A stretch of DNA of 64,000 nucleotides from Minisyncoccota bacterium (GCA_035546615.1 DASZWM010000002.1:61661-125660); one strand, 5' to 3'. Shown: positions 9,231 through 60,965, numbered from the stretch's first letter. The notes: generated by a model from the letters alone, not told the origin. A program made the numbers and translations.

Positions 9231-9303
9231 TGCCCGATCGTCTAATGGTAGGACAGAGGCCTTTGAAGCCTTTAATTGGGGTTCGAATCCCTGTCGGGCA
9301 GCA
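9231..9303 (+). tRNA. tRNA-Gln (anticodon UUG)
   Basis: Cloverleaf by hand: U1:A72 acceptor, anticodon loop cuUUGaa, T-loop UUCGAAU; CCA not encoded. Confidence 0.75.
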
Positions 9304-9525: not shown

Positions 9526-11199
9526 ATGCCGTATTCGACTGATATGTCAGTGTATTTAGATTTGGGCGGCGCTTTAGCTGCTTTTGGCCTTTTATTTACT
9601 GTTTACCAACTTCGGCGACCAAGGTGGGAGGTAATTTTGCGAATTAGAAATAATTGGCAAAGTGATATTTTCTGGATATTAGGTTTTATAGGTTTGTTTT
9701 ATGCCCTAGTTGGCGTGCTTGTATCTGAACTCCCAATTAATTCTTTCAACTTTCCGTTTAATACCCCATTACTTTACGAGGTGGCAGCGTACCTATCGTT
9801 TGTAGCTTCACCTCTGTCATTAATATATTTTGCGACCAATGACAAAAAGTTATTTAACGCAAAAACTGCAGAAACTTTCTACGAAGTAATCTTGCAAGAA
9901 ATTTCTAAATCTAGTGATGTAAACCTAGATGCGGCATTGGAAATAGTCTTGAGAAACTTTAATGAAATTTGTGATGCAACTCTTCAAAATACAGATAAAG
10001 ATTTGCGCTCATACGCAAGGTCAATTTTAGACGTTGTACTAAGTGACGAGTCTGTAGTAAAAGTGCTCACTACCAAGAGGCTTGATGCTTTGCAATATAT
10101 CTTTTATTTAATAAAGGAAAAGAATATCACTCGTGCTCATTCGGGGATAGGTATACCGAGAATTGTAAATAATCTTTTCTTTGACGAAAATTCCTTCCTC
10201 TATAAACAACTCGATAGAAAAGGGTTGGCACTTTCATCAAATATATACACGAGCATTTTTGAATCTCCAGTTATACTCACCAACTTTGATCTGTTTGGGT
10301 ACCCGACTATCGGTTATGGAATGAGTAGAGATACTGGCAATGCTGGTATAAGAGTATTTATCAAAGCCTTATCTCTAAGCATTGAAACTTACTTTAAAAC
10401 AGGGAGCGTGCCTCCGAGGCACATTAATAATGGGTTGTCTTACTTAAGCAATATATTTGGAGGGTTGTGTGCAAAAATTGCCATCAAAGAAAATAAAGGT
10501 GTTGATACTAAATCTAGTTTAGAAGATGAGTGGTGGGGCTTACATCAAATAGCCTCCTTTTTAGGACATGATTATATTTTTCTTGCCTATGAAGAAAAAC
10601 TAAATCAGCAAGTTCTGGAAAACGAAAAAACTGCCCATGAGGCTCGATTTGGCTCAAATGCAACTATAAATGAGGGTATTGCAGCTGTTATCTATAAAGC
10701 TTTTGAGCAGCTTTCACAAATTAAAAAAACCACAGACATATATCATACAGTTCTGGAGCTCTTGCATGGAATGATGAATGAGCCTACCTACAAGGAAGGT
10801 TATAGACCGCCTTTTGAAAAGAGACTCTGGCAACAAATCGGTGCAAATGTTGCTAAACGTTATTATCCTGCCGTCGTTAGAACGTATTTAACCTTTGTTG
10901 GGTTCTGTCTTGGCGCAGATGCAAACCAACGACAAGGTTGGATTGGCGAACAAGCGGAACGTATGAGACGACTTTTGTATATTGACCTTAAGCCTTTATT
11001 TGATAAGAATGAAAAAATGATAAATAAGGAATTTATGAAAGACGTTTTGCTCCCAGATTCCATGTCCTATAAAGATGGTAAATTTACTTATACCTCTGGA
11101 TTCGGAGAAGGTACAACCACTGAAGTAGCACCACCCCCTGAGGGTGCGACATCAGGTTTGGAAGGAATAGATTTAGAGAGTATGCCTCACTTCGTCTAG
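9526..11199 (+). CDS. hypothetical membrane protein (3 N-terminal TM helices + ~450-aa soluble domain); AT-rich
   Basis: 557 aa ORF, GC far below flanks, no motif recognised. Confidence 0.6.
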   Translation: MPYSTDMSVYLDLGGALAAFGLLFTVYQLRRPRWEVILRIRNNWQSDIFWILGFIGLFYALVGVLVSELPINSFNFPFNTPLLYEVAAYLSFVASPLSLIYFATNDKKLFNAKTAETFYEVILQEISKSSDVNLDAALEIVLRNFNEICDATLQNTDKDLRSYARSILDVVLSDESVVKVLTTKRLDALQYIFYLIKEKNITRAHSGIGIPRIVNNLFFDENSFLYKQLDRKGLALSSNIYTSIFESPVILTNFDLFGYPTIGYGMSRDTGNAGIRVFIKALSLSIETYFKTGSVPPRHINNGLSYLSNIFGGLCAKIAIKENKGVDTKSSLEDEWWGLHQIASFLGHDYIFLAYEEKLNQQVLENEKTAHEARFGSNATINEGIAAVIYKAFEQLSQIKKTTDIYHTVLELLHGMMNEPTYKEGYRPPFEKRLWQQIGANVAKRYYPAVVRTYLTFVGFCLGADANQRQGWIGEQAERMRRLLYIDLKPLFDKNEKMINKEFMKDVLLPDSMSYKDGKFTYTSGFGEGTTTEVAPPPEGATSGLEGIDLESMPHFV

Positions 11200-11201
11200 A
11201 T

Positions 11202-11759
11202 ATGAATCCAAACATTTGGTTTTACACTTTTAGTACAGCAGCCCAAGTAATGGCGGCTTTGGCCGGTTTATTTGCAGTATTTGTTGTATATAAGATTCAA
11301 GATTTTAGTCAGCTTATAAAAGACGCCCGCTCTAGTCTGTCCCGGTTGATTCCATACAATTCAGCGAATACGGGCGGAGATACAATCTCTAAGCAGGAAG
11401 TATTAGATATGACTGATAGAGAATTGGTTACTACGCTTGCCGAGTTGTTAGTACTTGAGACATCTCAGAATGGAGCGTTCTTTAGCGGACATTCAGAAAC
11501 TATAGATGGCACAACGATAGCTGTAAACTCGAATACCTACGACTATTTCGCAGCCCTTGTTGATAAAAAGGAAAGAATACTAAAACGTCTGATTTTTGTC
11601 TTGGGTTTAAGTTTAGGAACTATTTGTGTTTGTCTAGTATCATTGGTGCTAATTGACGTGTTATCAAAGTTTGAGTGGTTTATTTGGATGTGTTTGGCTT
11701 TATTTATATACACCCTTTGGACAATCGGAATGGATATTTACAAGATAACCCTAGAGTAA
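11202..11759 (+). CDS. hypothetical membrane protein (1 N-terminal + 2 C-terminal TM helices)
   Basis: 185 aa; 2-bp gap after the upstream gene; AT-rich. Confidence 0.55.
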   Translation: MNPNIWFYTFSTAAQVMAALAGLFAVFVVYKIQDFSQLIKDARSSLSRLIPYNSANTGGDTISKQEVLDMTDRELVTTLAELLVLETSQNGAFFSGHSETIDGTTIAVNSNTYDYFAALVDKKERILKRLIFVLGLSLGTICVCLVSLVLIDVLSKFEWFIWMCLALFIYTLWTIGMDIYKITLE

Positions 11760-11768
11760 TCTTTCTCT

Positions 11769-12092
11769 ATGAAAGGAATAATTATCGAAAATAGTCTCAA
11801 AGACAAAAGTATTATCACCGAAGCTGAAATTATTCGAACTTGGGAAGATGGAAGTTGGAAGTTGCGGGAGGTAAAAGTTTCAACAGAATGGGCTGAAAAA
11901 TTTGGAGGATACTTAAATGATGGACCCTGGTATGTTCACTTTTGGGAATCCGACAGCGACGATGTACTAGTAGTATTTAAAGACAAAAGCTTCTGGATCA
12001 AACATTCGGACAAGAATACTTGGCAAGATGCTATTGCTCATGGAAAGTCGTTACATATACCCGTGGAGCAATTAGACTTTCCTATTGATTGA
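11769..12092 (+). CDS. hypothetical small acidic cytoplasmic protein
   Basis: 107 aa; 9-bp gap after the upstream gene; AT-rich. Confidence 0.5.
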   Translation: MKGIIIENSLKDKSIITEAEIIRTWEDGSWKLREVKVSTEWAEKFGGYLNDGPWYVHFWESDSDDVLVVFKDKSFWIKHSDKNTWQDAIAHGKSLHIPVEQLDFPID

Positions 12093-12130
12093 GATTTCGA
12101 TTTCTCCCTTTTATATTATATAATCAAGAT

Positions 12131-12514
12131 ATGAAGTATTTGCTAATCACGGCTTTATTTTTGGTTGTCTTTGTGTTTGCTACTCCAGCAAAGGCCGCAC
12201 CATTAACCCAATCCCAAGTAAATGCAATAATTACTATTATGCAGTCTTTCGGTGTAGATAGTGCTACGATTTTAAATATCAAAACAACACTCTCTAATTC
12301 GACTTCCGCTAAGGTAGAATCCGTCGTCAAAACTACTTTTAAAGGAGTTCCTACCTACGCACAAGTGAAAAGAGAGTTAGCAAAATCACGCAATAAGGAG
12401 GTGACTTATATGGAGAATGGATGTGTATACTCAATAAACCATTTAGTGAGTGAACATATTTTCAAAACACGCGATATGAGTATTCGCGATCTTGCATCTG
12501 GAGCAAGTTGTTAG
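12131..12514 (+). CDS. hypothetical secreted protein (signal peptide MKYLLITALFLVVFVFATPAKA)
   Basis: Track ORF starts at TTG 12089 overlapping the previous stop; ATG 12131 gives a classical signal peptide; AT-rich. Confidence 0.5.
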   Translation: MKYLLITALFLVVFVFATPAKAAPLTQSQVNAIITIMQSFGVDSATILNIKTTLSNSTSAKVESVVKTTFKGVPTYAQVKRELAKSRNKEVTYMENGCVYSINHLVSEHIFKTRDMSIRDLASGASC

Positions 12515-20648: not shown

Positions 20649-21263
20649 ATGCGACTCTATTATTCTCCCGGTTCGTGCGCGCTGTCCCCGCATATCGTCG
20701 CGCGCGAAGCGGGGCTCGACGTCGAGATCGAAAAGGTCGTCTTCTCCGCCGACGGCCGCCGCACGCAGGAGCACGACGAGAACTTCTACGACGTGAATCC
20801 GCGCGGCTACGTGCCGGCCCTCAAGCTTGATTCCGGAGACATTCTGACCGAGGGCGTGGCTATCGTCCAATACTTGGCGGACCAGGCGCCCGGCGCCGGC
20901 CTAATGCCCAAGCATCAGAGCGGGGACTATTACAAAGCGCTCAGCTGGCTCACGTTCATCAGCTCGGAAGTGCATAAGGGCTTCAGCCCGTTCTTCCGCT
21001 CCAATCTGCCGGAGGAAGAGAAAAAGATAGCGCTGGACCGGCTGCTCAAGCGCTTTGACTGGATAAACGGCGCGCTTGAGGGAAACGATTATCTGGTGGG
21101 CGGAGCGTTCAGCATTGCGGACGCGTATTGCTACACCATCCTGCGCTGGCACCCGAAGGCCGGCATTGATCTGGGCAAGTATCCGAATATCAAGGAATAC
21201 TACGAGCGCATCGGCTCGCGCCCTGCGGTCAAGACGGCGCTTAAGGAGGAAGGACTCGAATAG
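20649..21263 (+). CDS. glutathione S-transferase
   Basis: 204 aa; MRLYYSPGSCALSPHIVAREAGL N-terminal thioredoxin-like fold, beta-class GST-like. Confidence 0.85.
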   Translation: MRLYYSPGSCALSPHIVAREAGLDVEIEKVVFSADGRRTQEHDENFYDVNPRGYVPALKLDSGDILTEGVAIVQYLADQAPGAGLMPKHQSGDYYKALSWLTFISSEVHKGFSPFFRSNLPEEEKKIALDRLLKRFDWINGALEGNDYLVGGAFSIADAYCYTILRWHPKAGIDLGKYPNIKEYYERIGSRPAVKTALKEEGLE

Positions 21264-24195: not shown

Positions 24196-25020
24196 CTACC
24201 TGACCACGGCCCTCTTCTGCCGTATGTTGGCCTCCATGTTCGCTATTTCCGCGTCGAATGCCGGATCGTTCGACCGGCGCAGCTTCACCACGTTCACGCT
24301 ATGGAGAATGGTCTTTGAATCCCGGTCCCCGAAGTAGGAGGACATCTTCGCATAGATCATGCCGGTCATGGACCTCACCAAAAAAATCGCGACGTGACGC
24401 GCGAGCCGGTATCTGCCGACCTTGATATCGGATTCAAGATCGGAAACCGTTACGTCATAGTGCAGGGCAACAGTTTCCTTTATCAGCGTGATGAGGTCTT
24501 CCTCGTCCTCCGTGTTTTTCTGGCTCTCGAGTACCGCCTCAATCCCGTCGAAGCTCTCGAGAACGACAGGCGCTGCTGAGAGCGGCTGTGCAGCCGGCTT
24601 TTCAGAAGATGCGTCTTCAGGAGTATCCTCCCGGGGCGGCGGCTTAGCCTTCGCCTCGGTCTTGGGGTTTTTTGTCGCAGCGGCCTTTTTGGCGGCTTCT
24701 TGCGCAGCCGTGGCCGCTTGATAGATGCGGCCCTTTTGCGTCGCGATGCTGCGCACCGCAACCAGCACCTCCGTCACGCCGTTGCGCTCTGCCTGCCAGG
24801 CGGCAAGCAGGCGCGCGCGATAGATGTCGAGTATCTGTCTGCGCAGGCCCGCTACGGGGACGCTGACACTGACGGTTGCCTGCGTTATTCCTTCAAGTTC
24901 CATTCGCCGGAAGAAGGCACTGAAGGCATCCTCGCCCAGATCCTTTTTCAGGCGTTCCTGCACGCGCGACCACTGCTTTGCCGCGTTCGTGCCTTCCCCC
25001 ACGGGGGTTTGAGCATCCAT
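24196..25020 (-). CDS. DnaA-like protein with DnaA N-terminal (domain I-like) and C-terminal DNA-binding domain IV but no AAA+ ATPase domain
   Basis: C-term ...VSDLESDIKVGRYRLARHVAIFLVRSMTGMIYAKMSSYFGDRDSKTILHSVNVV... matches the DnaA domain IV signature; N-term resembles DnaA_N; Ala/Lys/Pro/Glu-rich linker; start taken at Met24 of the track ORF. Confidence 0.65.
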   Translation of the reverse strand: MDAQTPVGEGTNAAKQWSRVQERLKKDLGEDAFSAFFRRMELEGITQATVSVSVPVAGLRRQILDIYRARLLAAWQAERNGVTEVLVAVRSIATQKGRIYQAATAAQEAAKKAAATKNPKTEAKAKPPPREDTPEDASSEKPAAQPLSAAPVVLESFDGIEAVLESQKNTEDEEDLITLIKETVALHYDVTVSDLESDIKVGRYRLARHVAIFLVRSMTGMIYAKMSSYFGDRDSKTILHSVNVVKLRRSNDPAFDAEIANMEANIRQKRAVVR

Positions 25021-25124
25021 CCCTATACTCCTTTTGCCTCTTAGGCGCCCCAAGGCGCGAAAACAAAATCCAAATACACTTAAACACATCCTCCTGGATT
25101 TTCAAGTGAATGGGGCAGGGCAGA

Positions 25125-45025: not shown

Positions 45026-45484
45026 ATGCAACATAAAGTCCTACGCGGCTTCACATTGATAGAGCTTCTGGTCGTTATAGCTATAATAGGGATACTTTCT
45101 AGTATTGTATTAGCGGCACTCGGGAAGGCTAGGGACGGCGCACGCGATGCGCGACGTGTCAGCGAGCTGCGAAGCATAGTACAAACTCTATTCCAATTGG
45201 ATATAAACAATCCAAATCAATCGCTCGATTGTGATGGCAGCGGTTTTACAACTGGTTGTAATTACATCAGCCAGTATAAAGATCCTACCGGTACGCTGTC
45301 GTGCGTTGTATTCCCTCCTAGTTCTGCCCGTGTGTGTCAATACACTATTACAAGCCCTTCCGGAGGCACTATCACCAGTTCTAACTTCAAGGTATGTACC
45401 TATTTAGAGGTAGGTTCAGGGGGTTTGCCGAAAGGAAATATAAATATAAATAGCAGTACTTACACCCTTACCGCCGGCTGCTAG
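45026..45484 (+). CDS. type IV pilin / pseudopilin (prepilin-type N-terminal cleavage/methylation domain)
   Basis: 152 aa; GFTLIELLVVIAIIGILSSIVLAAL. Confidence 0.8.
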   Translation: MQHKVLRGFTLIELLVVIAIIGILSSIVLAALGKARDGARDARRVSELRSIVQTLFQLDINNPNQSLDCDGSGFTTGCNYISQYKDPTGTLSCVVFPPSSARVCQYTITSPSGGTITSSNFKVCTYLEVGSGGLPKGNININSSTYTLTAGC

Positions 45485-45492
45485 AATGGTAG

Positions 45493-45563
45493 TGGACCTG
45501 GCGAGAATCGGACTCGCGACTCGGCAATGCGAATGCCGCGTAATACCACTTTACTACAGGCCC
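45493..45563 (-). tRNA. tRNA-Ala (anticodon CGC), T-loop UCCGAUU
   Basis: Hand-folded cloverleaf GGGCCUG/CAGGUCC acceptor with G3:U70 Ala identity pair, anticodon loop UUCGCAU; C instead of U at position 55. Confidence 0.7.
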
Positions 45564-45655
45564 GCTGAGATTTTCTTAGCGTTCTGCGCCTTAGAAAATC
45601 CAAGTGCACTTGGTGCTACCAAGGTGCCTTTTATCAAAATGCGTGCAACCCAGTG

Positions 45656-45720
45656 TCGGGATGCCGAGAATCGGACTCGGGAGTCGGTTCTACGCACCGA
45701 CTCAATTCAAGAAATGCGCA
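45656..45720 (-). pseudogene. tRNA 3' fragment: anticodon stem with a 20-nt loop, T-arm (UCCGAUU) and acceptor 3' strand CAUCCCG+A
   Basis: Shares anticodon-stem and T-arm sequence with the tRNA-Pro 70 bp away; no adjacent 5' half. Confidence 0.4.
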
Positions 45721-45745
45721 CCCTTCTCAATTTTCAGAGGCTCTG

Positions 45746-45816
45746 TCGGAGTGCCGAGAATCGGACTCGGGTCTTACGCACCCGAAGCGCATGTAATACC
45801 ACTATACCACACTCCG
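45746..45816 (-). tRNA. tRNA-Pro (anticodon CGG), T-loop UCCGAUU, with a 16-bp extended acceptor helix (45739..45824)
   Basis: C1:G72 and A73 (Pro identity), anticodon loop UUCGGGU with G37; leader GGCUCUGU pairs with trailer ACAGAGCC. Confidence 0.7.
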
Positions 45817-45824
45817 ACAGAGCC

Positions 45825-45861
45825 TCCGATGGCCTACGTAATACCATTATACCACATCCCG
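45825..45861 (-). pseudogene. tRNA 5' fragment (acceptor CGGGAUG + D-arm GUAU-AAUGGUA-UUAC)
   Basis: Acceptor 5' strand is the exact complement of the 3' strand of the fragment at 45656..45720. Confidence 0.35.
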
Positions 45862-46018
45862 ACACTGGATTTCACAGGACTTTTTTGTGGTCACAAATCG
45901 AATTTTCTCGACAGAAAATTCGTTCGCGACCCCAGCTCGCGGTTTTGCAAGTGCAAAACATCGCTACGCTTTGCCCCCAGGCGTCCACTCTGCCGCAGGG
46001 CAAAGTGGACGTCCTGTG

Positions 46019-46092
46019 TGCACCCTGAGAGGCTCGAACTCCCGACCTCGCCCGTGTGAAGGGCGCGCTCTAGCCAACTGAGCTAAGGGTGC
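46019..46092 (-). tRNA. tRNA-Val (anticodon CAC)
   Basis: Canonical cloverleaf GCACCCU...UUCGAGC...AGGGUGC-A, anticodon loop UUCACAC. Confidence 0.8.
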
Positions 46093-46191
46093 GGTAGGAA
46101 CATCATAGCGGAAAAAGCGTATGCAGACTAGCGCGGAATTTTTTGGGACATAGACGGAAAGGAGAAAAAATGTTTGAATGGGGCATACAGC

Positions 46192-46264
46192 GGGCCCTTA
46201 GCTCATCTGGTAGAGCGCCTCATTTGCAATGAGGAGGTGACCGGTTCGATCCCGGTAGGGTCCA
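46192..46264 (+). tRNA. tRNA-Ala (anticodon UGC)
   Basis: GGGCCCUUAGCUCAUCUGGUAGAGC..UUUGCAA..UUCGAUC..AGGGUCC-A; G3:U70. Confidence 0.85.
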
Positions 46265-46279
46265 CAAAAGACAGAAATA

Positions 46280-46307
46280 CCTCCCCTGCGGGAGGTTTTC
46301 TGCTTTT
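46280..46307 (+). terminator. rho-independent terminator after tRNA-Ala(UGC)
   Basis: cctccc-ctgc-gggagg followed by ttttctgctttt. Confidence 0.6.
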
Positions 46308-46429
46308 GTGGAGGCTGCAGCCATGTCCTGCAAGTGCAGGACGGCGAGGCGGGGTCGAGAGGCGTTTTCGCGACGGCGAAAACGAATTCGTGACCATACA
46401 AGCATAAGTCTTAAAATTAAGATGCTAAA

Positions 46430-47254
46430 ATGAAGCCAATGGACTGGCTCAGCGGATTTTCCGTCCTTAACCCGCAGGGCGCGGTGGGGCTTGCCGAGCG
46501 CGGGCTCATGATCCACGCGGTCGAGTTCATGCTCATTGTCGCCATTCCGGTCTATATTCTTCTGTTCTTTTTTGCCTGGCACTACAGGGCGGGCAATAAG
46601 GAGGCGAAATACACGCCTGACTGGGAACACGCGAAGATAGACGAGCTTATCTGGTGGGCGATACCGTTTGAGATAGTCCTGGTGCTGGGCGCGCTCACCT
46701 GGACCAGCACGCACCAGCTCGCGCCTACTAAACCGCTTGAAGGAGGCCCGCCGCTTGTGGTCGAGGTAGTGGCGCTCGACTGGAAGTGGCTTTTCATTTA
46801 CCCGGAGCAGGATATCGCCACAGTCAATTACCTGCAGCTGCCGGTCGGCCGCCCCGTGCGGTTCGATGTCACCGCCGATGCGCCTATGAATTCGTTCTGG
46901 ATTCCGCAGCTGGGCGGGCAGATATACGCGATGACCGGCATGGTGAATTCTCTCAACCTGGTGGCCGACAGTCCGGGGACGTTCAAAGGGGGCTCCTCTA
47001 ATTACAGCGGCGAGGGCTTCGCGCAGATGAAGTTTTCCGTCGATGCGGTGCCGCCCGAGGATTTTGATGCGTGGGTCAGGGTGACGCAGGCCCGACCCGC
47101 CGCCTTAACGCTCGATACGTACCATACGCTTGAAGCCCAGAGTACCGTTAAAGACCCCGTGTACTATGGAGATGTGGACGAAGGCCTATACGATGCTGTT
47201 GTGGGCCAATTCATGGGCCACGGCGATTCGGGAGAAGAGGAACACAACCACTAA
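46430..47254 (+). CDS. cyoA: cytochrome o (bo3) ubiquinol oxidase subunit II
   Basis: 274 aa; signal/TM region and cupredoxin-like domain lacking the CuA ligands, typical of quinol oxidases. Confidence 0.9.
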   Translation: MKPMDWLSGFSVLNPQGAVGLAERGLMIHAVEFMLIVAIPVYILLFFFAWHYRAGNKEAKYTPDWEHAKIDELIWWAIPFEIVLVLGALTWTSTHQLAPTKPLEGGPPLVVEVVALDWKWLFIYPEQDIATVNYLQLPVGRPVRFDVTADAPMNSFWIPQLGGQIYAMTGMVNSLNLVADSPGTFKGGSSNYSGEGFAQMKFSVDAVPPEDFDAWVRVTQARPAALTLDTYHTLEAQSTVKDPVYYGDVDEGLYDAVVGQFMGHGDSGEEEHNH

Positions 47255-47257
47255 TCT

Positions 47258-49210
47258 ATGTTCGGCAAACTCACGTTAGATGCGTTCATCCATGGCCCCG
47301 TCGAGACCGGCGGGCAATTGGGTGTTGTCCTCGGCGCGCTCGCGGTAATCGGGCTCCTGTTCTATTTCAAGCGCTGGAAGTGGTTCTACCGCGAGTGGCT
47401 CACGAGCGTGGACCACAAGAAAATAGCGGTCATGTATATCGTGCTTTCCTTCGCGATGCTTGCGCGCGGCGCCGCGGACGCGTTCATGATGCGCGCGCAG
47501 CAGGCGGTCGCGGTGGGCGACAGCGCGGGGTACCTGTCGGGCGACCACTTTTCGCAGATATTCACCGCGCACGGCGTCATCATGATATTTTTCGTTGCGA
47601 TGCCGTTCATGTTCGGGCTCATCAATCTTATTATCCCGCTCCAGATAGGGTCCCGCGACGTCGCATACCCCTTCCTTAACTCGCTTTCCTTCTGGCTAAC
47701 CGCTACGGGCGCGGTGCTTATAAATCTATCGCTCGTCGTAGGCGAGTTCGCCGCCACCGGCTGGCTCGCGTACCCGCCGCTGTCGGAACTCCAGTACAGC
47801 CCCGGGGTAGGGGTGGACTACTACATTTGGGCGCTCCAGATAGCGGGCGTCGGCACGCTGCTGTCGGGCATAAATTTCCTCGTGACCATCGTCAAGATGC
47901 GCGCGCCGGGCATGAATTTCATGCGGATGCCGATATTCTCATGGACTACGCTAGGCTCCATGGCGCTGGTCATATTCGCGTTCCCTATACTTACCGTAAC
48001 CCTGGCGCTTCTCGGGCTCGACCGTACGCTCGGCATGCACTTTTTTACGACTGACCTGGGCGGCAACGCGATGATGTACGTGAATCTCATCTGGGCGTGG
48101 GGGCATCCGGAGGTGTACATACTCATCCTGCCCGCCTTCGGCATATTCTCCGAGGTCGTGCCGGTATTCTCGCAGAAAAAGCTCTTCGGATACACGTCGA
48201 TGGTCGTGGCAACGCTCGTCATCGTGGTGCTGTCCTTCCTGGTGTGGGTGCACCATTTCTTCACCATGGGCGCGGGCGCCGACGTGAACGCCTTCTTCGG
48301 CATCATGACGATGGCCATCGCGATCCCGACCGGCGTGAAGGTGTTCAACTGGCTCTTCACCATGTTCCGCGGGCGCATCCTCTTTACCACTCCCATGCTG
48401 TGGTTCATGGGATTTCTCACGACGTTCGTGCTGGGCGGCATGACGGGGGTGCTCATGGCGGTGCCGGGAGCGGACTTCCAATTGCATAACAGCCTGTTCC
48501 TCGTGGCGCACTTCCATAACATGATAATCGGCGGCGTGCTCTTCGGGTTCTTTGCCGGGTTCGTCTACTGGTTCCCGAAAGCCTTCGGCTTCACGCTTAA
48601 CGAACGGCTGGGGCGCTACGCGTTCTGGAGCTGGATCATCGGGTTCGTACTCGCGTTCATACCGCTGTATCTCCTCGGGCTCATGGGCATGACGCGCAGG
48701 CTTTCTCAAGTTGACCCGGCATGGCACGGACTCCTCATTGTTGCCGCCATAGGCGCGGGCATCATCGCGCTGGGCATATTCTTCCAGGTGCTCCAGATGG
48801 TCGTGAGCATTTGGCAGAGGAACCGGAATCGCGATACGACGGGCGACCCGTGGAACGGCCGCACGCTCGAATGGTCCGTTTCTTCGCCGCCGCCGTTCTA
48901 TAACTTCGCGCTCATTCCGCGCGTGCACGGTCGCGACGCGTGGTGGATGATAAAACAGGGCCACGCTCCCGCGCATTCCCGCCTGTACGAGGACATCGAG
49001 ATCCCGTGCAATACCTTTGTCGGGGTGCTGGTGGCCGGAGGCGCGTTCCTCTTCGGATTCGGCATGGTCTGGCACATCTGGTGGCTCGCTGTCCTGGGAA
49101 TACTCGCCGCCGCCGCGCTGCTTATCGCCCGTTCGTTCAACGAGGATATCGAATACGTGCTTCCTGCGGCCGAAGTGGCGCGGATAGAGGCCGCGCGCAA
49201 AACTACATGA
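47258..49210 (+). CDS. cyoB: cytochrome o ubiquinol oxidase subunit I
   Basis: 650 aa; heme-copper oxidase subunit I helices with conserved His ligands. Confidence 0.95.
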
Positions 49211-49794
49211 CGAACAACACTTCACACTCGCATGCGCAGGACAGGGTAGCGTTCGGCTTCTGGGTCTATCTCATGAGCGACTGCGTGCTCTTCGCCGCGC
49301 TGTTCGCAACCTATGCGGTGCTCCAGCATGCGACAGTAGGGGCGCTGGAAATGTCCGACATAGTCAGCTTACCCTTCGTACTCGTGGAAACCCTGCTCCT
49401 CCTGACCTCCAGCTTCACGATCGGCCTCGCGATGCTCGCGGCGCATGCAGAGAAAAAGCTCCTTACGATTATCGCGCTTGCCGCCACGCTTTTGCTGGGC
49501 GTTTCGTTCCTCGGGATGGAAGTGAGCGAGTTCTCGAAGCTCATTGCCGAAGGCCGCGGGCCCGACCAGAGCGCGTTCCTCTCATCCTTCTTTACGCTGG
49601 TGGGCACGCACGGGCTTCATGTGGCGCTCGGGTCGCTCTGGATGCTCGTTCTTATCGGGCACGTGTTCCTGAAAGGCCTCACGGCGGGGAGCGTGCGCAA
49701 GCTTCTGTGCCTGAGCCTCTTCTGGCACTTCCTTGATATCATCTGGATATTCATATTCACCCTCGTATATCTTTTCGGAGCGCTTGCCTTATGA
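49207..49794 (+). CDS. cyoC: cytochrome o ubiquinol oxidase subunit III
   Basis: Internal ATG 49207 ([25 protein letters not shown]...); the track ORF 48940.. is an upstream extension into cyoB. Confidence 0.9.
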
Positions 49795-50156
49795 CATTGC
49801 TGAAAACATACATACTCGGGTTCGTCCTTTCGATAGTGCTTACCGTCGTTGCATTCTGGCTCGTATGGCGGCATGTCGCGTCCGGCCACGAGTTTCCTTC
49901 GCACGAAACCCTGGTGCCGCTGCTCGTACTGCTGGCGCTGGGGCAGCTCGCGGTGCAGCTCATCTGTTTCCTCCATGTGGCTCGGGAAAAGCGCCCCCGC
50001 TGGAACCTTGCCGCGCTCGGTTTTGCCGTACTCATCGTCGCGATTCTTGTCGGCGGCACCCTTTGGATAATGCGCAACCTTGAGCATATGCAGGGGATGC
50101 AGAAGACGATACCGTTCGAAGAAGGGGCGATCACTCCGCAGACCGAAAATGATTAA
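49791..50156 (+). CDS. cyoD: cytochrome o ubiquinol oxidase subunit IV
   Basis: 121 aa, 3 TM; overlaps the cyoC stop. Confidence 0.8.
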   Translation: MTLLKTYILGFVLSIVLTVVAFWLVWRHVASGHEFPSHETLVPLLVLLALGQLAVQLICFLHVAREKRPRWNLAALGFAVLIVAILVGGTLWIMRNLEHMQGMQKTIPFEEGAITPQTEND

Positions 50157-50838
50157 GTCGTACTACCGGCTCGCGAAGCCCGGCATCATATACGGCAACG
50201 CGCTCGCGGCGGCGGCGGGCTTTTTGTTCGCCGCGGCCGGCGCCGTCGATTGGGCCCTGTTCCTTGCGATGCTTCTTGGACTTTCGCTCATTATCGGGAG
50301 CGGCTGCGTGCTCAACAACATATATGACCGCGATATGGACGCGCGGATGGAGCGCACCAAAAACCGTGCGATGGCAACCGGTGCCATACCGCGCAAGCAT
50401 GCGCTTATATACGCCCTTGTCCTAGGCGTTATGGGAGGACTGCTGCTGGTTTTGTATACGACGCCGCTGGCGTTTGCCTTCGCGCTCGGCGGGTTCTTCG
50501 TATACGTGCTTCTGTATACGCCGCTAAAGTCAAAGAGCGCGTTCGCGCTGTTCGTGGGCGCTGTTGCGGGCGCGGTGCCGCCCGTTGTTGGCTACGCCGC
50601 GGCAGCCAATACGTTCGACGCGTACGCTTTCTGGCTGTTCGCGGCGCTCTATGTCTGGCAGCTGCCGCATTTCCTCGCCATAGCGACCTACCGATATTCC
50701 GAATATCGCGCGGCGGGGGTGCCTCTGCTCATTGCGCGCGAGCCTTCGGCCCGGGCAAAGCGATGGGGAAGAACGGTGTTCTACGCCTCGCTCGCGGTCC
50801 TTCTTTTGGCGTGCGGCGCCTTGATGCTCCACAGGTGA
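50149..50838 (+). CDS. cyoE: protoheme IX farnesyltransferase (heme O synthase)
   Basis: Start at the internal Met (MIKSYYRLAKPGIIYGNALAAAAGF...); UbiA-family motif NNIYDRDMDARMERTKNR. Confidence 0.85.
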   Translation: MIKSYYRLAKPGIIYGNALAAAAGFLFAAAGAVDWALFLAMLLGLSLIIGSGCVLNNIYDRDMDARMERTKNRAMATGAIPRKHALIYALVLGVMGGLLLVLYTTPLAFAFALGGFFVYVLLYTPLKSKSAFALFVGAVAGAVPPVVGYAAAANTFDAYAFWLFAALYVWQLPHFLAIATYRYSEYRAAGVPLLIAREPSARAKRWGRTVFYASLAVLLLACGALMLHR

Positions 50839-51347
50839 AGCAGGTAGGGGGCGATAGTGCCCAGCAGGAAGGCTCCAACGACGCTCGTGGCTATGGCAAG
50901 CGGTTCCACCTCGCGATATAGCACCGTACTGAAACCCACCAGGTTTATAAGCAGGAGCGCGCCCATAACAGAATAGAAGTTTATGACGCTCCACCAGGTA
51001 AATTTTTTGAAGTCGGTCGGATGTATGTGCGCGAAATGCTGTACGTAATGCGTCAGTCCCTGCGCTTGCAGCTTGGCCTGCTCCGTGCGCACCCCGAGCA
51101 GATAGCCGATAAGCGCGCCTAAAAGCCATGCCGGAATAGTGAAGGGAAGCGTGTCCAGGGTGTACTTCCAGAAGGAAATGGTTATCGTGGCGACGATAAA
51201 AAGGAAGAAGAGCGTCATGATGAGGCGCGTGCGGGTAAATTCGTCCTCAATGGCGTATTTGAGCGCCGTGATTATTGAAAGGAACACGGTCAGCGCGGCA
51301 ACAGTGATGGTTATGGAGTTCGGCAGCTGTTCCATAGGTATATGCAA
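50781..51347 (-). CDS. hypothetical integral membrane protein (4-5 TM)
   Basis: 188-aa ORF; its 3' end overlaps the cyoE 3' end by about 58 bp, so the start or extent is uncertain. Confidence 0.45.
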   Translation of the reverse strand: MHIPMEQLPNSITITVAALTVFLSIITALKYAIEDEFTRTRLIMTLFFLFIVATITISFWKYTLDTLPFTIPAWLLGALIGYLLGVRTEQAKLQAQGLTHYVQHFAHIHPTDFKKFTWWSVINFYSVMGALLLINLVGFSTVLYREVEPLAIATSVVGAFLLGTIAPYLLHLWSIKAPHAKRRTASEA

Positions 51348-51402
51348 ATATTAGCATGGAGAGACAATAGCGCCGCCTCTCACGAGGCGGCGCGGAGCCG
51401 GG

Positions 51403-51933
51403 TTAATGCATCCCGGGATAGGTCGGACACTGGGCGGAAAACGCAAATCGGACGAGGTCTGCCTTCCATCCAAGCCCGGTCAAATCGACGTACCTGCCCT
51501 GCACTTCGTACGCCTGGTGCTCGGTCTGGTTCAGGCACTGGAATTTGGTGCTGTACGCGACAAGCTTGCCGTCGATGTCGATGTCCCCATGCTCGAACTG
51601 CAGCACGTGCACGAGCTCGTGGACCACGATGTAGTCATCCCGGGGAGACTGATAGTCGTCCCGGACCGTGATATGCGTGCCGACCGTGTAGGCTTCAATA
51701 TCCTTCTGGCCGGCATATGCTTGTCCATAGTAGCGCTTATTGATGTCGTCGATCTTATCGAAGCTGACCGTGGGCTGGACGTACGCGACCGAGTAGCCGG
51801 TCTGATTTCCGACCCACGGAAGCAGCGTAGCCACGCGGTCGTCGACCGAACTCGCGTGTGCACACGCCGCACTTAGGAAGCCGGAGCAGAACGCGATCAC
51901 TAATCTTGTGATTAGGCGCATTGTCGTCACCAC
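51403..51933 (-). CDS. lipoprotein with HEXXH zinc-metalloprotease-like motif
   Basis: 176 aa; lipobox LSAAC; HELVHVLQFEHG. Confidence 0.55.
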   Translation of the reverse strand: MVTTMRLITRLVIAFCSGFLSAACAHASSVDDRVATLLPWVGNQTGYSVAYVQPTVSFDKIDDINKRYYGQAYAGQKDIEAYTVGTHITVRDDYQSPRDDYIVVHELVHVLQFEHGDIDIDGKLVAYSTKFQCLNQTEHQAYEVQGRYVDLTGLGWKADLVRFAFSAQCPTYPGMH

Positions 51934-52083
51934 CTTTCTTACAAGGAGCGAGTGAGGTGATGCCCTGCATTTCCTCCTATTGTACTAAATGAACTATGCG
52001 CTTAAGAAATAGCATGTCAAGAAATAGGGAAGTGGATAATGAAAAGCTCCCGTACGGGAGCTTTTCATTATGAGAGCTCTTTT

Positions 52084-52485
52084 CTAGAAGTTAAAGTTGA
52101 GCCCGCCGTTTACATCCGCCTTAAGCGAAGCGTTCGTATCGAGGCTGCTTTGCGAACCCGACGTCTGGGCATCCGACTGCGCATGTGCGCGTACGGAAGC
52201 ATCGGCGTCCGTGTCCGCGTTCAAGCGGCTTTCGCCGGTATTGTCGGCTTCAGCATCCGCGTTTGTATCGGAATCCGCATCGGCGTTGAGATGAAGAACG
52301 GCCTTGACGGAAGAGCCGACCGACGTGAATTCGTGCGCGGTCGCTACGGCGCCGGCGCGAACATTGTCATTTACATGCACTTTGTACTGGTAGAGCGGTT
52401 CGCTGGGCTTTGCATGGTCCGCTGCAAGCGAAACACCGCCGCCCAAGAATACTGCCGCTGCAAGAGCTATAGCGATAAAAGGCAT
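52084..52485 (-). CDS. secreted Asp/Ala-rich repetitive protein
   Basis: 133 aa; signal peptide; low-complexity DADA/NAD repeats. Confidence 0.45.
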   Translation of the reverse strand: MPFIAIALAAAVFLGGGVSLAADHAKPSEPLYQYKVHVNDNVRAGAVATAHEFTSVGSSVKAVLHLNADADSDTNADAEADNTGESRLNADTDADASVRAHAQSDAQTSGSQSSLDTNASLKADVNGGLNFNF

Positions 52486-52601
52486 AGGTAGTGTAGTTAC
52501 CTGCTAATCTTCTCGCACAAACATGAAGACGTCATACTCGATGGGTTATTACAGACCCACGTATATCAAAAAGCCGTTTTTGTGTTATAGTGTAACGAAC
52601 T

Positions 52602-53369
52602 ATGGAGTCAGGCCTGCACATCACGCTCGCTTCGGAGCGCCTGTTCAACTTTTTCGGGCTGCCTATAACCAATACTCTCATAACCACCTGGCTAGTCATG
52701 GGCTTGCTTCTCACTATCGCATTCTTCGTCGGCCGCGGCCTTAAGCTGACCCCTGGCCGGTTCCAGAGCGCGGTCGAGATGGGGCTTGAATATGTCTACG
52801 CCTATGTCGCGGAGACCCTGGGCGACGAAAAGCTCGCGCGCCGCTATTTTCCGCTTATCGCGACCATTTTCATCTTTATCCTTACGGCAAACATGTTCGA
52901 TTTCCTGCCGGTCTTCGGCTCATTCGGCCTGCACCATGGCGAGGAATTCGTGCCGCTCCTGCACCCGGTGAATGCCGACCTCAACACCACGCTGGCGCTC
53001 GCCATCATTGTATTTTTCGTCATCGAATTGTCCGGAATCCTCACTCTTGGCGTGTTGAAATACGGCTCCAAATTTGTTAATGTAACCAATGGCGCGATGA
53101 ATTTCGCCGTGGGGCTGCTTGAGCTTATCGGCAACTTGGCGCGTCTCATCTCGTTCTCCTTCAGGCTCTTCGGGGCGATCTTCGCCGGAGAGGTCCTGCT
53201 TATGGTCATCGGCTCATTCGTCCCTGTCCTGCTTCCGGTGCCGCTTATGGCATTCGAGGCGTTCATCGGGCTCCTGCAGGCGGCGATATTCGCCATCCTT
53301 ACGCTTGCATTCATCAAGATCGCCATCGCGGAGCCGCACGGGCACGCGGAGGCGCACGCAACGCATTAA
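52602..53369 (+). CDS. atpB: F0F1 ATP synthase subunit a
   Basis: 255 aa; conserved Arg-containing helix region. Confidence 0.9.
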   Translation: MESGLHITLASERLFNFFGLPITNTLITTWLVMGLLLTIAFFVGRGLKLTPGRFQSAVEMGLEYVYAYVAETLGDEKLARRYFPLIATIFIFILTANMFDFLPVFGSFGLHHGEEFVPLLHPVNADLNTTLALAIIVFFVIELSGILTLGVLKYGSKFVNVTNGAMNFAVGLLELIGNLARLISFSFRLFGAIFAGEVLLMVIGSFVPVLLPVPLMAFEAFIGLLQAAIFAILTLAFIKIAIAEPHGHAEAHATH

Positions 53370-53389
53370 TTATCCGTTTTTATTCATAG

Positions 53390-53626
<237 letters not shown>

Positions 53627-53647
53627 TAAATTTTATTCCTTTAGGTA

Positions 53648-54097
53648 ATGGAAGCGATACTCACAACCTTCGGCATTGATTGGCGGCTTCTGCTCATAAA
53701 CGCCATCAACTTCGGCCTGCTCCTGTTCGGGTTGTGGTACTTCCTGTACGGCCCGGTCATGCGGATGCTCGATGAGCGTCGCACAAAGGTCGCGCAGGGA
53801 GTAGCCGACGCGCAGAAGGCGGCTGACGAGCTCCGCGGCATCGAGGATTCCCGCGCAGCAGCGCTCGCCCAAGCCGGAAAGGAGGCGGACAACCTCGTAT
53901 CGCAGGCGCGCGCTTCGGCCGCGCAGAAGGAGCGCGAGATAGTCGCGCAGGGCGAGGCCGCCGCCGCCCGCATCGTAAAGGAAGCGGAGGCCCAGGCGCA
54001 GGAAGCGAAGGCGCAAGCCATCGCGGAGAGCAAAGAAGAGGTCGCCCGCATGATAGTGCTTGGCATGGAAAAGACGCTAACCGGCAAAAGCGCATGA
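53648..54097 (+). CDS. atpF: F0F1 ATP synthase subunit b
   Basis: 149 aa; N-terminal TM plus long Ala/Glu/Lys-rich coiled coil. Confidence 0.85.
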   Translation: MEAILTTFGIDWRLLLINAINFGLLLFGLWYFLYGPVMRMLDERRTKVAQGVADAQKAADELRGIEDSRAAALAQAGKEADNLVSQARASAAQKEREIVAQGEAAAARIVKEAEAQAQEAKAQAIAESKEEVARMIVLGMEKTLTGKSA

Positions 54098-54345
54098 AAT
54101 TAGAGGAAATGTACGCGCATGCGCTGCGCGAGTCGGATATAGGCGACGCGAAGAAGGTTCTCGATTCGTTAAAGGCCTCGCTTAAGCGCCGCGGACACGA
54201 AAAGCTCCTGCCGAGGATCTTCGCTGAGTATCAGAAGCTCGGGCTTCGCGAGAAGCGGATGGAGGCCCATAAGGCGGTAACTCCGGAAAGCGAGCGCACA
54301 AGGATATTGCTGCAGCTCTACAGGAAACTAGTCGCAAGCCGCTAG
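54094..54345 (+). CDS. atpH: F0F1 ATP synthase subunit delta, unusually short (83 aa)
   Basis: Position between atpF and atpA; overlaps the atpF stop; less than half the usual delta length. Confidence 0.55.
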   Translation: MKLEEMYAHALRESDIGDAKKVLDSLKASLKRRGHEKLLPRIFAEYQKLGLREKRMEAHKAVTPESERTRILLQLYRKLVASR

Positions 54346-54367
54346 TGACCAGCCAATCAAAAAGTAT

Positions 54368-55933
54368 ATGCAAAACTTCATCGAACAATTTAAAAAGGAA
54401 ATAGAAGGCTTCACGCCGGAAAAGCGCTCTGCAGGCGCCGGCGTCGTTCTGCGCGTCTCGGACGGCGTTGCCGAGATCGAGGGCCTTTCAAACGCGGTGA
54501 TGTCGGAAATGATCCGCTTCGATACCTCCCACGGCAAGAGCCTCAAGGACGCGGTCGCCTCGAGCCAGGAAGTCTACGGCGTTATTTTGAACCTGGAGGA
54601 AGAGTCTGTGCGCGCAATCATTTTGGGCGACTCGGCAGCGGTGCGGGAAGGCATGCAGGTGGAGGCGACCGGCGAGGTGCTTTCCATTCCGGTGGGCGAC
54701 GCGCTCATCGGCCGCGTGGTTTCTCCCTTGGGTGTGCCGCTGGACGGCCAGGGCGCTATCGCTGCCACGAAGAAAAACCCTATCGAGCGCGAGGCCTACG
54801 GCGTTATGGACCGCCAGTCGGTCAACCAGCCGCTCCACACCGGCATCAAGGCTATCGACTCGATGATCCCCATAGGCCGCGGACAGCGCGAACTCATCAT
54901 CGGCGACCGCTACACCGGCAAGACCACCATCGCGATGGACACCATCCTCAACCAGAAGAGCGAGCCGGCCGACACGCGCCCCATCTGCATTTATGTTTCT
55001 ATCGGCCAGAAGGAGAGCAAGACCGCGCGCCTCGTGCAGCAGCTTCGCGAGCGCGGAGCGCTCGAATACTCGATAGTGGTGGACGCGGGCGCATCGGCCC
55101 CGGCCGCCATCCAGTACCTGGCGCCGTTCGCGGGCGCCGCTATCGGCGAGTTCTTCATGGACTCCGGCCGCGACGCGCTCGTCATCTACGACGATCTTTC
55201 CAAGCACGCCGTCGCATACCGCCAGCTCTCGCTCCTTCTTCGTCGCCCGCCGGGCCGCGAGGCATATCCGGGCGACGTCTTCTACCTCCACTCGCGCCTG
55301 CTTGAACGCGCGGCAAAGCTTTCCAAGGAAAAGGGCGGCGGCTCTTTGACCGCGCTTCCGGTCATCGAGACGCAGGAGAACGACGTGTCAGGCTACATTC
55401 CGACCAACGTCATTTCCATTACCGACGGTCAGATATTCCTCGAGACAGACCTCTTCAACAAGGGCATTCGCCCGGCAATTAACGCGGGCGTGTCGGTGTC
55501 CCGCGTGGGTTCGGCCGCGCAGACCAAGGCGATGAAGAAGGTCTCCGGTAAGATAAAGCTCGAGCTCGCTCAGTTTCGCGAGCTTGAAGCGTTCATGCAG
55601 TTCTCGCAGGACCTCGACGCCGACACCAAGCGCCGCATCGAGTCCGGCCAGCGCATGATGGCTACGCTCAAGCAGCGCAACGGCAATCCGATGGGCTTCG
55701 AATATCAGGCCATCTCCATTTACGCGTCGGTAAACGGCTACCTCAAGGGTGTTGCAGTGGACCGCGTGCCGGAATACGAGGAAAAGCTGCTCGCCTACAT
55801 CGAGGCGGAAACTCCCGAGATACTCAAATCTATCCGCGAATCCCGGATCATAGCCGAGCAGACCGAGGAGCACCTGAAGGCCGCGCTCGCGAGCTTCGCA
55901 GAAACGCATCCGGACCTGGTTAGTAGGGTATAG
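54368..55933 (+). CDS. atpA: F0F1 ATP synthase subunit alpha
   Basis: 521 aa; GDRYTGKT Walker A. Confidence 0.95.
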   Translation: MQNFIEQFKKEIEGFTPEKRSAGAGVVLRVSDGVAEIEGLSNAVMSEMIRFDTSHGKSLKDAVASSQEVYGVILNLEEESVRAIILGDSAAVREGMQVEATGEVLSIPVGDALIGRVVSPLGVPLDGQGAIAATKKNPIEREAYGVMDRQSVNQPLHTGIKAIDSMIPIGRGQRELIIGDRYTGKTTIAMDTILNQKSEPADTRPICIYVSIGQKESKTARLVQQLRERGALEYSIVVDAGASAPAAIQYLAPFAGAAIGEFFMDSGRDALVIYDDLSKHAVAYRQLSLLLRRPPGREAYPGDVFYLHSRLLERAAKLSKEKGGGSLTALPVIETQENDVSGYIPTNVISITDGQIFLETDLFNKGIRPAINAGVSVSRVGSAAQTKAMKKVSGKIKLELAQFRELEAFMQFSQDLDADTKRRIESGQRMMATLKQRNGNPMGFEYQAISIYASVNGYLKGVAVDRVPEYEEKLLAYIEAETPEILKSIRESRIIAEQTEEHLKAALASFAETHPDLVSRV

Positions 55934-56028
55934 CCAATAGCGACTAGCCACTAGTAAAAACCAATACTATGAAAACTACTGAAAATATCCTCCCTAAACC
56001 CTATTGGCTAGTGGCTAATTCCTAATAT

Positions 56029-58333
<2,305 letters not shown>

Positions 58334-60347: not shown

Positions 60348-60965
60348 ATGTCTTTTTTCCACGACAGCACCCAGCGTAAAAAAATAGTCGTTCTCATCGG
60401 CCATCCCGATTCGGACTCGACCATCACGAGCCAGCTCGCGCTTTTGTATGAAGAGTCGGCAAAGAAGGCGGGCCACGAGGTGAAGCGCTTCCACTTGGCC
60501 GAAATGCGCTTCGACCCCATCCTCCACAAGGGGTACAAGGTCATACAGGCGTACGAGCCGGATCTGGTAAAGCTCCAGGAGGCGATAAAATGGTGCGACC
60601 ACTTCGTTATCTTCTACCCCAACTGGTGGTGCACGATGCCCGCGCTCCTGAAGGGCCTCTTTGACCGCATGTGGATGCCCGGATTTGCCTTCAATATGCG
60701 CAAGACAAAGCAGGGGACCCCGGCGCTCGGCTGGTACAAGCGGCTTAAGGGCAAGACCGCGCGGGTGTTCATACTCTCGGGCACGCATCCGCTCCTTATA
60801 TGGTTCTTCTTCGGCGACTACACCAACGAGATAAAGCGGGGGATACTCTGGTTCGCGGGCTTCCGCGTGAGGAGCACCCTGATGGGCCCGTCCGAAACCG
60901 CGCCGGAATGGAAGCGCAACGAATGGCGCCGCAAGGTTACCCACCTCGGCAAGCTCGCGAAGTGA
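60348..60965 (+). CDS. NAD(P)H-dependent oxidoreductase (flavodoxin-like, NAD(P)H:quinone oxidoreductase/azoreductase family)
   Basis: 205 aa; [13 protein letters not shown]...[10 protein letters not shown] motifs. Confidence 0.8.

Follow-up and report, generated by a model that had tools for sequence, protein, structure and literature searches.

The cyoABCDE operon at positions 46430-50838 (plus strand) of a 64,000-nucleotide stretch of Minisyncoccota DNA (GCA_035546615.1, DASZWM010000002.1:61661-125660; hereafter the window) is a real, intact set of genes for a cytochrome bo3 quinol oxidase and a haem O synthase. The operon adjoins tRNA genes, and a preliminary description of this DNA had proposed that the respiratory module was acquired at this site, tRNA loci being hotspots of integration. 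Our analysis argues instead for an old resident oxidase operon of the Paceibacterota, which would stem from an ancient proteobacterium-like donor and occupies a fixed site, with no recent delivery by a tRNA-targeting element; we put the probability of this reading at roughly 80%. Acquisition through the tRNA hotspot is contradicted by a codon usage like that of the resident genes, by the absence of an integrase or attachment-like repeat from the surroundings of the operon that were scanned, and by the gene order, which has been kept in relatives.

Five co-oriented, intact open reading frames (ORFs) make up the operon. Those of cyoA (quinol oxidase subunit II, 46430-47254), cyoB (subunit I, 47258-49210), cyoC (subunit III, 49207-49794) and cyoD (subunit IV, 49791-50156) all pass the equivalog cut-offs of their NCBIfam models (TIGR01433, 276.7 vs. 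266.2 bits; TIGR02843, 1062 vs. 1020 bits; TIGR02842, 240.8 vs. 223.75 bits; TIGR02847, 96.2 vs. 81.45 bits), with concordant Pfam assignments, and the four subunits of a bo3-type quinol oxidase, II, I, III and IV, follow each other in the order cyoA-B-C-D. The fifth gene, cyoE (50149-50838), encodes a short form of haem O synthase of 229 amino acids (aa), which stays just under the cut-off of TIGR01473 (209.2 vs. 210.3) because about 54 internal residues are missing. The genes are tightly packed, with ATGA overlaps between cyoB and cyoC and between cyoC and cyoD, and an 8-nt overlap between cyoD and cyoE; the overlap previously described for every junction does not extend to cyoA and cyoB, which are separated by a 3-nt spacer. 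The adjacency to tRNA-Ala(UGC) stands as well, the distance to the cyoA ATG being 164 nt and not 166 bp as given earlier.

The Patescibacteria-like host, which had been put forward as an unproven premise, can be accepted because the databases contain sequences 100% identical to UvrB and CyoE of the window under the name “Candidatus Paceibacterota bacterium”, and because the named ones among the best 120 CyoB matches (70-87% identity) are all Parcubacteria, Adlerbacteria, Paceibacterota, Patescibacteria or plain “bacterium”. Sixty-two subunit I sequences were placed in a neighbor-joining tree with 200 bootstraps, for which two CtaD and one QoxB from plasmids served as the root. All 27 Patescibacteria CyoB fall into one clan (86.5%), together with three Chlamydiae sequences and one unnamed metagenome-assembled genome (MAG). 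This clan is sister to a gammaproteobacterial group (77.5%) within an otherwise mainly proteobacterial sample of CyoB. The window CyoB itself lies in an all-Patescibacteria subclade with 100% support and is 62-66% identical to proteobacterial CyoB. The tree points to an oxidase lineage that would be foreign to the phylum at depth and was probably received long ago from a proteobacterium-like donor. Haem-copper oxidases of Patescibacteria have been reported to cluster together, nested among Proteobacteria (Beam et al. 2020, PMC7507113), and cyoABCDE operons have been described in Saccharibacteria, Doudnabacteria and one Parcubacteria sequence (Nicolas et al. 2021, PMC8407418); an acquisition from other bacteria is considered probable (PMC8407418, PMC7507113, PMC12577380). 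Later surveys found cyo in a few Parcubacteria MAGs, and respiration vs. detoxification is debated. Quinol oxidase operons of proteobacterial ancestry are already published for Patescibacteria, and the one described here is an ordinary, vertically kept member.

Within the same tree, CyoB of Parachlamydiaceae and Waddlia (L015, L066, L075) is placed inside a Saccharibacteria-type branch of the Patescibacteria clan, which hints at a transfer of CyoB between Patescibacteria and Chlamydiae.

Could the operon be a proteobacterial fragment that was joined to a Patescibacteria contig during assembly or binning? The identity of 62-66% to proteobacterial CyoB and the presence of respiratory genes where the phylum would not lead one to expect them are compatible with such an artefact. 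On the other hand, the operon lies within one continuous window and is surrounded by Paceibacterota housekeeping genes that share its composition, the same arrangement has been assembled independently in at least three other projects, and the best 120 CyoB matches (70-87%) are all closer than any proteobacterial sequence. We therefore regard an artefact as extremely improbable.

An integrative element carrying cyoABCDE that was inserted beside tRNA-Ala(UGC) or within it, either in this genome or in its direct ancestor, would account for an operon that begins 164 nt past a tRNA, for tRNA-derived fragments close by, for a region upstream of cyoA that varies among relatives and for an oxidase foreign to the phylum at depth. 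The composition of the operon speaks against such a recent arrival. The synonymous codon usage of the cyo genes lies within the resident distribution (z from -1.1 to +0.65) and does not differ from that of the flanking housekeeping genes; the pooled codon distance is 0.055 for cyo, compared to 0.069 for uvr and 0.080 for atp, and the G+C content at third codon positions (GC3) of 0.70-0.81 matches UvrA, UvrB, AtpA and AtpD. As a positive control, a low-GC island at 9526-12514 stands out with z = 5.3-7.0. The expected scars are missing as well: no direct repeat of at least 12 nt is shared between 45400-46430 on the tRNA side and 50780-52650 on the far side, further occurrences of the tRNA ends are confined to other tRNA genes and the halves of a tRNA-Pro, and no integrase or recombinase Pfam domain was found in the window ORFs scanned, which include those flanking the operon, smaller ORFs being outside the scan. 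An integrase, a distal tRNA repeat, deviant composition and variable presence, the four marks of a genomic island, are all lacking, the search for relatives with an empty site not having been exhaustive.

Beyond the operon, the GTDB representative loci share almost no flanks with the window, and synteny was taken from closer metagenome relatives. The contig carrying P0001 (310,990 bp; CyoB 87% identical) reads uvrA-uvrC-ddl-PCD-HYR-pilin...cyoABCDE-convergent 184-aa gene...atp operon, and L081 (CyoB 80%) and L082 (CyoB about 77%) have the same backbone, with differing inserts on both sides of cyo. The order ddl-PCD...cyoABCDE...convergent membrane gene...atp is common to all three (CyoB about 77-87%), and for a recent acquisition the operon and its downstream neighbours should not occupy the same site in each of them. 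The window counterpart of the convergent gene (50781-51347, minus strand) encodes a 188-aa multi-pass orphan membrane protein and shares 58 nt with the 3' end of cyoE; its position is kept in the P0001-bearing contig, L081, L082, L002 and L005. The F-type ATP synthase operon, atpB through atpD, follows at 52602-58333 (plus strand; Pfam ATP-synt_A, and tblastn to L081 genes with ATP synthase Pfam families). Divergence is of the same order inside and outside the operon. Compared to L081, the cyo proteins are 54-80% identical and the flanking housekeeping proteins 64-85%; nonsynonymous divergence (dN) ranges from 0.13 to 0.39 in cyo, and in atp and ddl from 0.12 to 0.27, and synonymous divergence (dS) is saturated in both sets, which does not fit an operon that arrived after its neighbours. 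With dS saturated, the dN/dS of at most 0.2 is usable only as an upper bound.

What varies among the relatives is the arrangement of the tRNA genes. In L081 and L082, the two relatives with readable DNA, the same tRNA species lie upstream of cyo in different orders and orientations. In L087, by UvrB the nearest relative (93%), the order is ddl-PCD-tRNA-Ala(UGC) on the minus strand, followed by two further ORFs and IMPDH, so that the conserved start is kept up to IMPDH; its tRNA-Ala(UGC) and IMPDH are oriented as in L081. At more distantly related Patescibacteria loci the operon stands without any tRNA gene in its vicinity. The layout of the window could have arisen by inversion of the tRNA block and loss of genes that the relatives have kept in this interval, namely IMPDH, an HD-domain gene and a 122-126-aa membrane ORF situated just before cyoA in other genomes; these changes would have brought the tRNAs up against cyoA. 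Because the same tRNAs are found upstream in relatives, in shuffled order, we interpret the direct contact of tRNA and cyoA as a local inversion plus deletion and not as an insertion scar. Looking at the locus in relatives thus finds the operon kept in the P0001-bearing contig, L081 and L082, with only the upstream tRNAs rearranged. In this family, cyo would be inherited at a fixed chromosomal position, with the ddl-PCD block on one side and the ATP synthase operon on the other, and the tRNA cluster would be an old neighbour.

The cluster itself consists mainly of intact genes. On the minus strand lie tRNA-Ala(CGC) (45492-45563; ARAGORN, Rfam tRNA 61.6 bits), tRNA-Pro(CGG) (45745-45816) and tRNA-Val(CAC) (46018-46092), and on the plus strand tRNA-Ala(UGC) (46192-46265), which ends 164 nt before the cyoA ATG; the latter three were also found by both ARAGORN and Rfam. 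A terminator-like hairpin, acctccc-ctgc-gggaggt, with a T-rich run (46279-46304, plus strand) comes directly after tRNA-Ala(UGC). The tRNA-Pro(CGG) is located between the halves of a second, disrupted copy on the same strand. The 3' half of this copy (45643-45700; T arm, acceptor strand and extended flank; repeat families D2 and I2) differs from the 3' end of tRNA-Pro by 2 mismatches over 22 nt, and the 5' half (45838-45875; acceptor and D arm) is defined by repeat families D3 and I2 and by the comparison with L081. The split gene (45643-45875) is the orthologue of the tRNA-Pro(CGG) of L081, with the same flanks, and is interrupted near the anticodon arm by about 140 nt that carry the second, intact tRNA-Pro(CGG). 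In the intact copy the acceptor stem is lengthened by 13 bp of flank (inverted repeat I3, 20 nt, 95% complementary). What had been called a tRNA-fragment cluster is therefore, for the most part, three intact minus-strand tRNAs, next to which the two halves of one disrupted tRNA-Pro do exist. These halves are about 600 nt away, are carried by the opposite strand and have only about 140 nt between them, which speaks against the insertion of a cyo element. Taking composition, missing scars, synteny and divergence together, we consider a recent acquisition very improbable; the neighbouring tRNA does not, in this case, testify to a recent integration, and the operon should not be listed among recent transfers.

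A group I intron (cf. bioRxiv 10.1101/2025.07.03.662931) was considered as the cause of the split in tRNA-Pro and rejected because the insert is only about 140 nt long and mostly a second tRNA-Pro. Just upstream of the cluster, a type IV pilin-like gene with an N_methyl motif (45026-45484) has a GC3 of 0.42 and a codon z of 4.6.

Several observations weigh against the view of an old, vertically kept and functional operon. The ranking of the relatives differs between gene sets: L082 is closer than L081 by UvrB (91 vs. 82%), Ddl (78 vs. 67%) and AtpB (69 vs. 64%), and L081 is closer than L082 by CyoB (80 vs. 76%) and CyoC (72 vs. 60%), the relatives' UvrB matches having been paired with their CyoB matches by inference. 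Because of this discordance, an exchange of cyo alleles among relatives is possible. The phylogeny is a neighbor-joining tree of 62 sequences, in which shallow nodes are weakly supported (9-69%). The locus L001 has only cyoBCD, so operon decay occurs in the clade. CyoE lacks two helices that are present in every characterised haem O synthase. Finally, genomes of such Patescibacteria have been reported in the literature to lack quinone synthesis, and the function of the oxidase is a prediction.

L001 is the nearest GTDB representative (CyoB 78%). Between its positions 7000 and 15500 it carries cyoB-C-D only, with no room for cyoA and no cyoE. A P-type ATPase gene and a large ORF that by eye resembles a serine recombinase lie downstream, and two Cys-containing ORFs, DsbA- and DsbB-like by eye, lie upstream. 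The operon of L001 is apparently decaying or being remodelled.

The residues on which a quinol oxidase depends are conserved throughout. In the alignment of CyoB with its E. coli counterpart, 16 of 16 key residues are kept, as they are in four relatives: the ligands of haem b, haem o3 and CuB (His-106, His-284, His-333, His-334, His-419 and His-421), the cross-linked Tyr-288, Glu-286, Asp-135, Lys-362, Arg-481 and Arg-482, with the residues of the D- and K-channels among them, and the quinol-site residues Arg-71, Asp-75, His-98 and Gln-101. CyoA aligns over its full length with E. coli CyoA and has lost the signal peptide and the lipobox cysteine. The CuA cysteines are absent, as expected of a quinol oxidase; the segment SSNYSGEGFAQMKF, aligned with SASYSGPGFSGMKF of E. 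coli, contains no cysteines. A quinol site in subunit I combined with the absence of CuA from subunit II identifies the enzyme as a quinol rather than a cytochrome c oxidase. Judged by these residues, CyoABCD is a working-looking bo3-type (A1 haem-copper) quinol oxidase. Electrons from quinol would enter CyoB at Arg-71, Asp-75, His-98 and Gln-101 and pass through haem b to the haem o3-CuB centre, where O2 would be reduced to water with pumping of protons. CyoE would supply haem O by farnesylating haem b. The resulting proton gradient could drive the adjacent F1Fo ATPase; alternatively, the enzyme may mainly serve to remove O2. A Flavodoxin_2-type NAD(P)H oxidoreductase-like gene (60348-60965), 2 kb past atp, is a candidate for electron input or quinone reduction.

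The most unusual part of the operon is CyoE. It has 229 aa, compared to 296 aa in E. coli, and the alignment shows that about 54 internal residues have been lost in frame, the last helix being still present; the missing part corresponds to about positions 204-258 of E. coli CyoE, which form helices 7 and 8. The protein thus departs from the form of about 280-300 aa with nine helices and a score over the equivalog cut-off. Both catalytic loops are nevertheless in place, with NNxxDxxxD...R-T-xx-R after helix 2 and WQxPHF...Y after helix 6. An AlphaFold model calculated on an alignment of short forms reaches a pLDDT of 96.9 and matches solved prenyltransferases of the UbiA family, with fewer helices. 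A C-terminal truncation had been considered, given that profiles match only residues 1-218 and that no continuation exists in other frames; it was rejected because the alignment shows an internal deletion with the last helix present.

The short form is not confined to the window. CyoE of 227-246 aa is found in more than 100 of the best 120 90%-identity clusters (P0241-P0360), at 53-71% identity to the window protein, and the contig carrying P0001 has a CyoE of 231 aa; at other Patescibacteria loci the protein has 279-289 aa. Among 49 aligned short forms both catalytic motifs are invariant, as are the residues Asn-56, Asn-57, Asp-60, Asp-64, Met-67, Arg-69, Thr-70, Arg-73, Trp-170, Gln-171, His-174 and Phe-175. 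The seven-helix CyoE would therefore be a clade-wide variant of this Paceibacterota clade, and it looks new.

Whether the operon is a relic, resident in its genome with an oxidase that is no longer active, in a cell without quinone and haem, has to be weighed at this point. A CyoE that lacks two helices, some 54 residues, and falls just under one equivalog cut-off, a CyoA without signal peptide and lipobox, the demonstration by L001 that cyoA and cyoE can be lost, and published doubts about a full respiratory chain in these organisms (PMC9938205) could all be read as signs of decay. In a decaying operon, however, one would not expect five intact ORFs with dN/dS of at most 0.2, nor 16 of 16 functional residues kept in CyoB, nor a confident UbiA-fold model of CyoE (pLDDT 96.9). 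The short CyoE is present in more than 100 of the best 120 clusters, with motifs invariant in the 49 aligned, and a pseudogene would hardly have stayed open across a divergence down to 53-71% identity. We consider a relic unlikely, and an old resident operon with a putatively functional short CyoE remains the reading that we prefer.

The preliminary description had further placed two perfect hairpins in the 5' untranslated region of cyo. Both exist (gtcctgc-aagt-gcaggac at 46325-46342 and cgttttcgc-gacg-gcgaaaacg at 46363-46384), and the leader upstream of cyoA folds far better than its shuffles (z = -7.0), but they are not specific to cyo and form part of one copy of a repeated tRNA-trailer element. 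Perfect hairpins with stems of at least 8 bp occur at about 24 further places in the window. A sigma-70-like promoter match, GTGACC-16-TAAAAT (46390-46417, plus strand; a consensus match only), ends 13 nt before the cyoA ATG and lies downstream of both hairpins, which may therefore be outside the cyo mRNA. Because this promoter-like site is situated between the element and the cyoA start, we assign the hairpins to the tRNA trailer and not to a cyo-specific leader. As far as the sequence context tells, the hairpins belong to the trailer of tRNA-Ala(UGC).

The comparison of trailers defines the element. Behind tRNA-Ala(UGC), a stretch of 135 nt can be aligned, with one 1-nt gap, to 133 nt that follow tRNA-Val on the opposite strand, and the two trailers contain the same three hairpins in the same order, with compensatory changes in the stems. 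The core of about 97 nt comprises an interrupted hairpin, a GCGAG-N3-GGGTCG block and a second hairpin, in which GGTC/GACC closes a GCGACGGC apex; the conserved blocks of primary sequence are GCGAG, GGGTCG, GCGACGGC and TGACC. A covariance model, R1, was built from six copies. In the window it scores the copy that follows tRNA-Ala(UGC) and holds both hairpins (46306-46402, plus strand) with 100.4 bits, the copy after tRNA-Val (45882-45978, minus strand), whose alignment with the former is gap-poor, with 98.5 bits, and a third copy (9361-9458, plus strand) after tRNA-Gln(UUG) (9231-9302), whose trailer spans 9303-9460, with 67.7 bits. Copies in the relatives lie at 6216-6312 and 4751-4855 of L081 and at 3973-4241 of L082. 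Searching with the model brought to light a further copy behind tRNA-Ala(UGC) of L081 and, in L082, the third of the tandem units; the more distant Patescibacteria loci and L087 gave no match.

To what extent is the element tied to tRNA genes? Metagenome contigs were searched by a pattern scan followed by the covariance model, and among the resulting 80 loci (L088-L167) 42 contain a total of 50 copies. Thirty-seven of these are located at most 400 nt downstream of a tRNA gene on the same strand, 35 of them at a distance of 20-90 nt and most commonly at 39-41 nt, and the preceding tRNAs cover at least 24 anticodon types and 18 amino acids. The other 13 copies are exceptions, at least four of which have too little upstream sequence to judge. 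In the alignment 94.4% of cells pair, compared to 69% in shuffles and 28-39% with the partners slid, and both sides have changed in 22 of 27 pairs; these figures for pairing and covariation are inflated, since the alignment follows the model and some columns were predetermined by the seed pattern. The element-bearing contigs range from 34 to 64% GC, and one of them encodes a SerS 70% identical to that of the window. No Rfam 15 family corresponds to the element at gathering or E-value thresholds, and no published description of it was found in the literature. A match to RNAI on the opposite strand scored 25 bits, where the gathering score is 47, and was set aside as a fortuitous resemblance of three hairpins. 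The element could act as a trailer terminator, as a 3' processing signal or as the source of a trailer-derived small RNA.

Tentatively, and at somewhat less than even odds, the findings may be combined into a picture in which a structured RNA (or DNA) element that has not been described before, about 97 nt long, sits about 40 nt behind tRNAs, and in which an oxidase clade works with a minimal seven-helix haem O synthase. A clade-wide short haem O synthase that retains its catalytic loops would be a natural minimal enzyme of the UbiA type and gives a handle on whether these cells make haem O. The trailer element, in turn, suggests that tRNA transcription or processing includes a step that has not been studied so far, in a phylum whose RNA biology is known to be unusual. 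If the readings of the seven-helix CyoE and of the trailer are true, they would, together with the fixed linkage of cyo and atp and the oxidoreductase-like gene, suggest an energy-conserving aerobic module in a Parcubacteria family.

Other features of the window are reported for completeness. The 188-aa convergent protein behind cyoE has only 14 representative homologues among 1.84 billion proteins and belongs to no family, and the three ORFs downstream of cyoE have no match in PHROGs. The island at 9526-12514 follows tRNA-Gln and its trailer element and consists of four ORFs (557, 185, 107 and 141 aa) with a GC3 of 0.31-0.37, compared to about 0.75 in the genome; none of them has a match in Pfam, PHROGs or PADLOC. 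Within the window, this island is what truly qualifies as a candidate for recent acquisition beside a tRNA. Three genes are unusual for Patescibacteria: one for a GstA-type glutathione transferase that passes its equivalog cut-off (20649-21263), one for a GcrA-like protein (883-1410, minus strand) and the Flavodoxin_2-type oxidoreductase-like gene at 60348-60965. A 297-aa protein (24196-25089, minus strand) combines the N-terminal and C-terminal DNA-binding domains of DnaA, and the AAA+ ATPase domain was not detected between them.

Compared to cyoABCDE of E. coli, the window operon has the same five genes in identical order and a CyoB that is 63% identical. The haem and CuB ligands, Tyr-288, Glu-286, Asp-135, Lys-362 and the quinol-site residues Arg-71, Asp-75, His-98 and Gln-101 are the same in both, and CyoA lacks CuA cysteines as in E. 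coli. Unlike in E. coli, CyoE is devoid of helices 7 and 8 (229 vs. 296 aa), CyoA has neither signal peptide nor lipobox cysteine, the genes are packed with ATGA overlaps and the host belongs to an ultra-small Patescibacteria lineage. With the published Patescibacteria operons of Saccharibacteria such as “Ca. Teamsevenus rhizospherense”, of Doudnabacteria and of one Parcubacteria sequence (PMC8407418), and with the published haem-copper oxidase cluster of Patescibacteria (PMC7507113), it shares the operon, the gene order, the position of the clan among Proteobacteria and the same question of quinone supply. In contrast to these, the window copy lies in a large subclade of Paceibacterota/Adlerbacteria type (100% bootstrap), which is distinguished by the fixed linkage of cyo and atp, the seven-helix CyoE and the orphan convergent membrane gene; the published accounts consulted make no mention of these features.

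The only feature in common with tRNA-targeted islands is that the module adjoins tRNA genes. Such islands differ from it in their integrase, in the distal duplicate of the tRNA end, in their compositional contrast and in being absent from relatives. For the trailer element, two kinds of known sequences offer themselves for comparison. Functional 3' external transcribed spacers (3'ETS) of tRNAs, such as the 3'ETS-leuZ sponge of E. coli, and palindromes of the REP/BIME type are likewise hairpin-rich, non-coding and repeated, and are located in tRNA trailers or between genes. What sets the element described here apart from both is a single conserved two-domain fold that keeps a fixed distance of about 40 nt from the preceding tRNA, across at least 24 anticodon types, along with conserved blocks of primary sequence and extensive compensatory changes.

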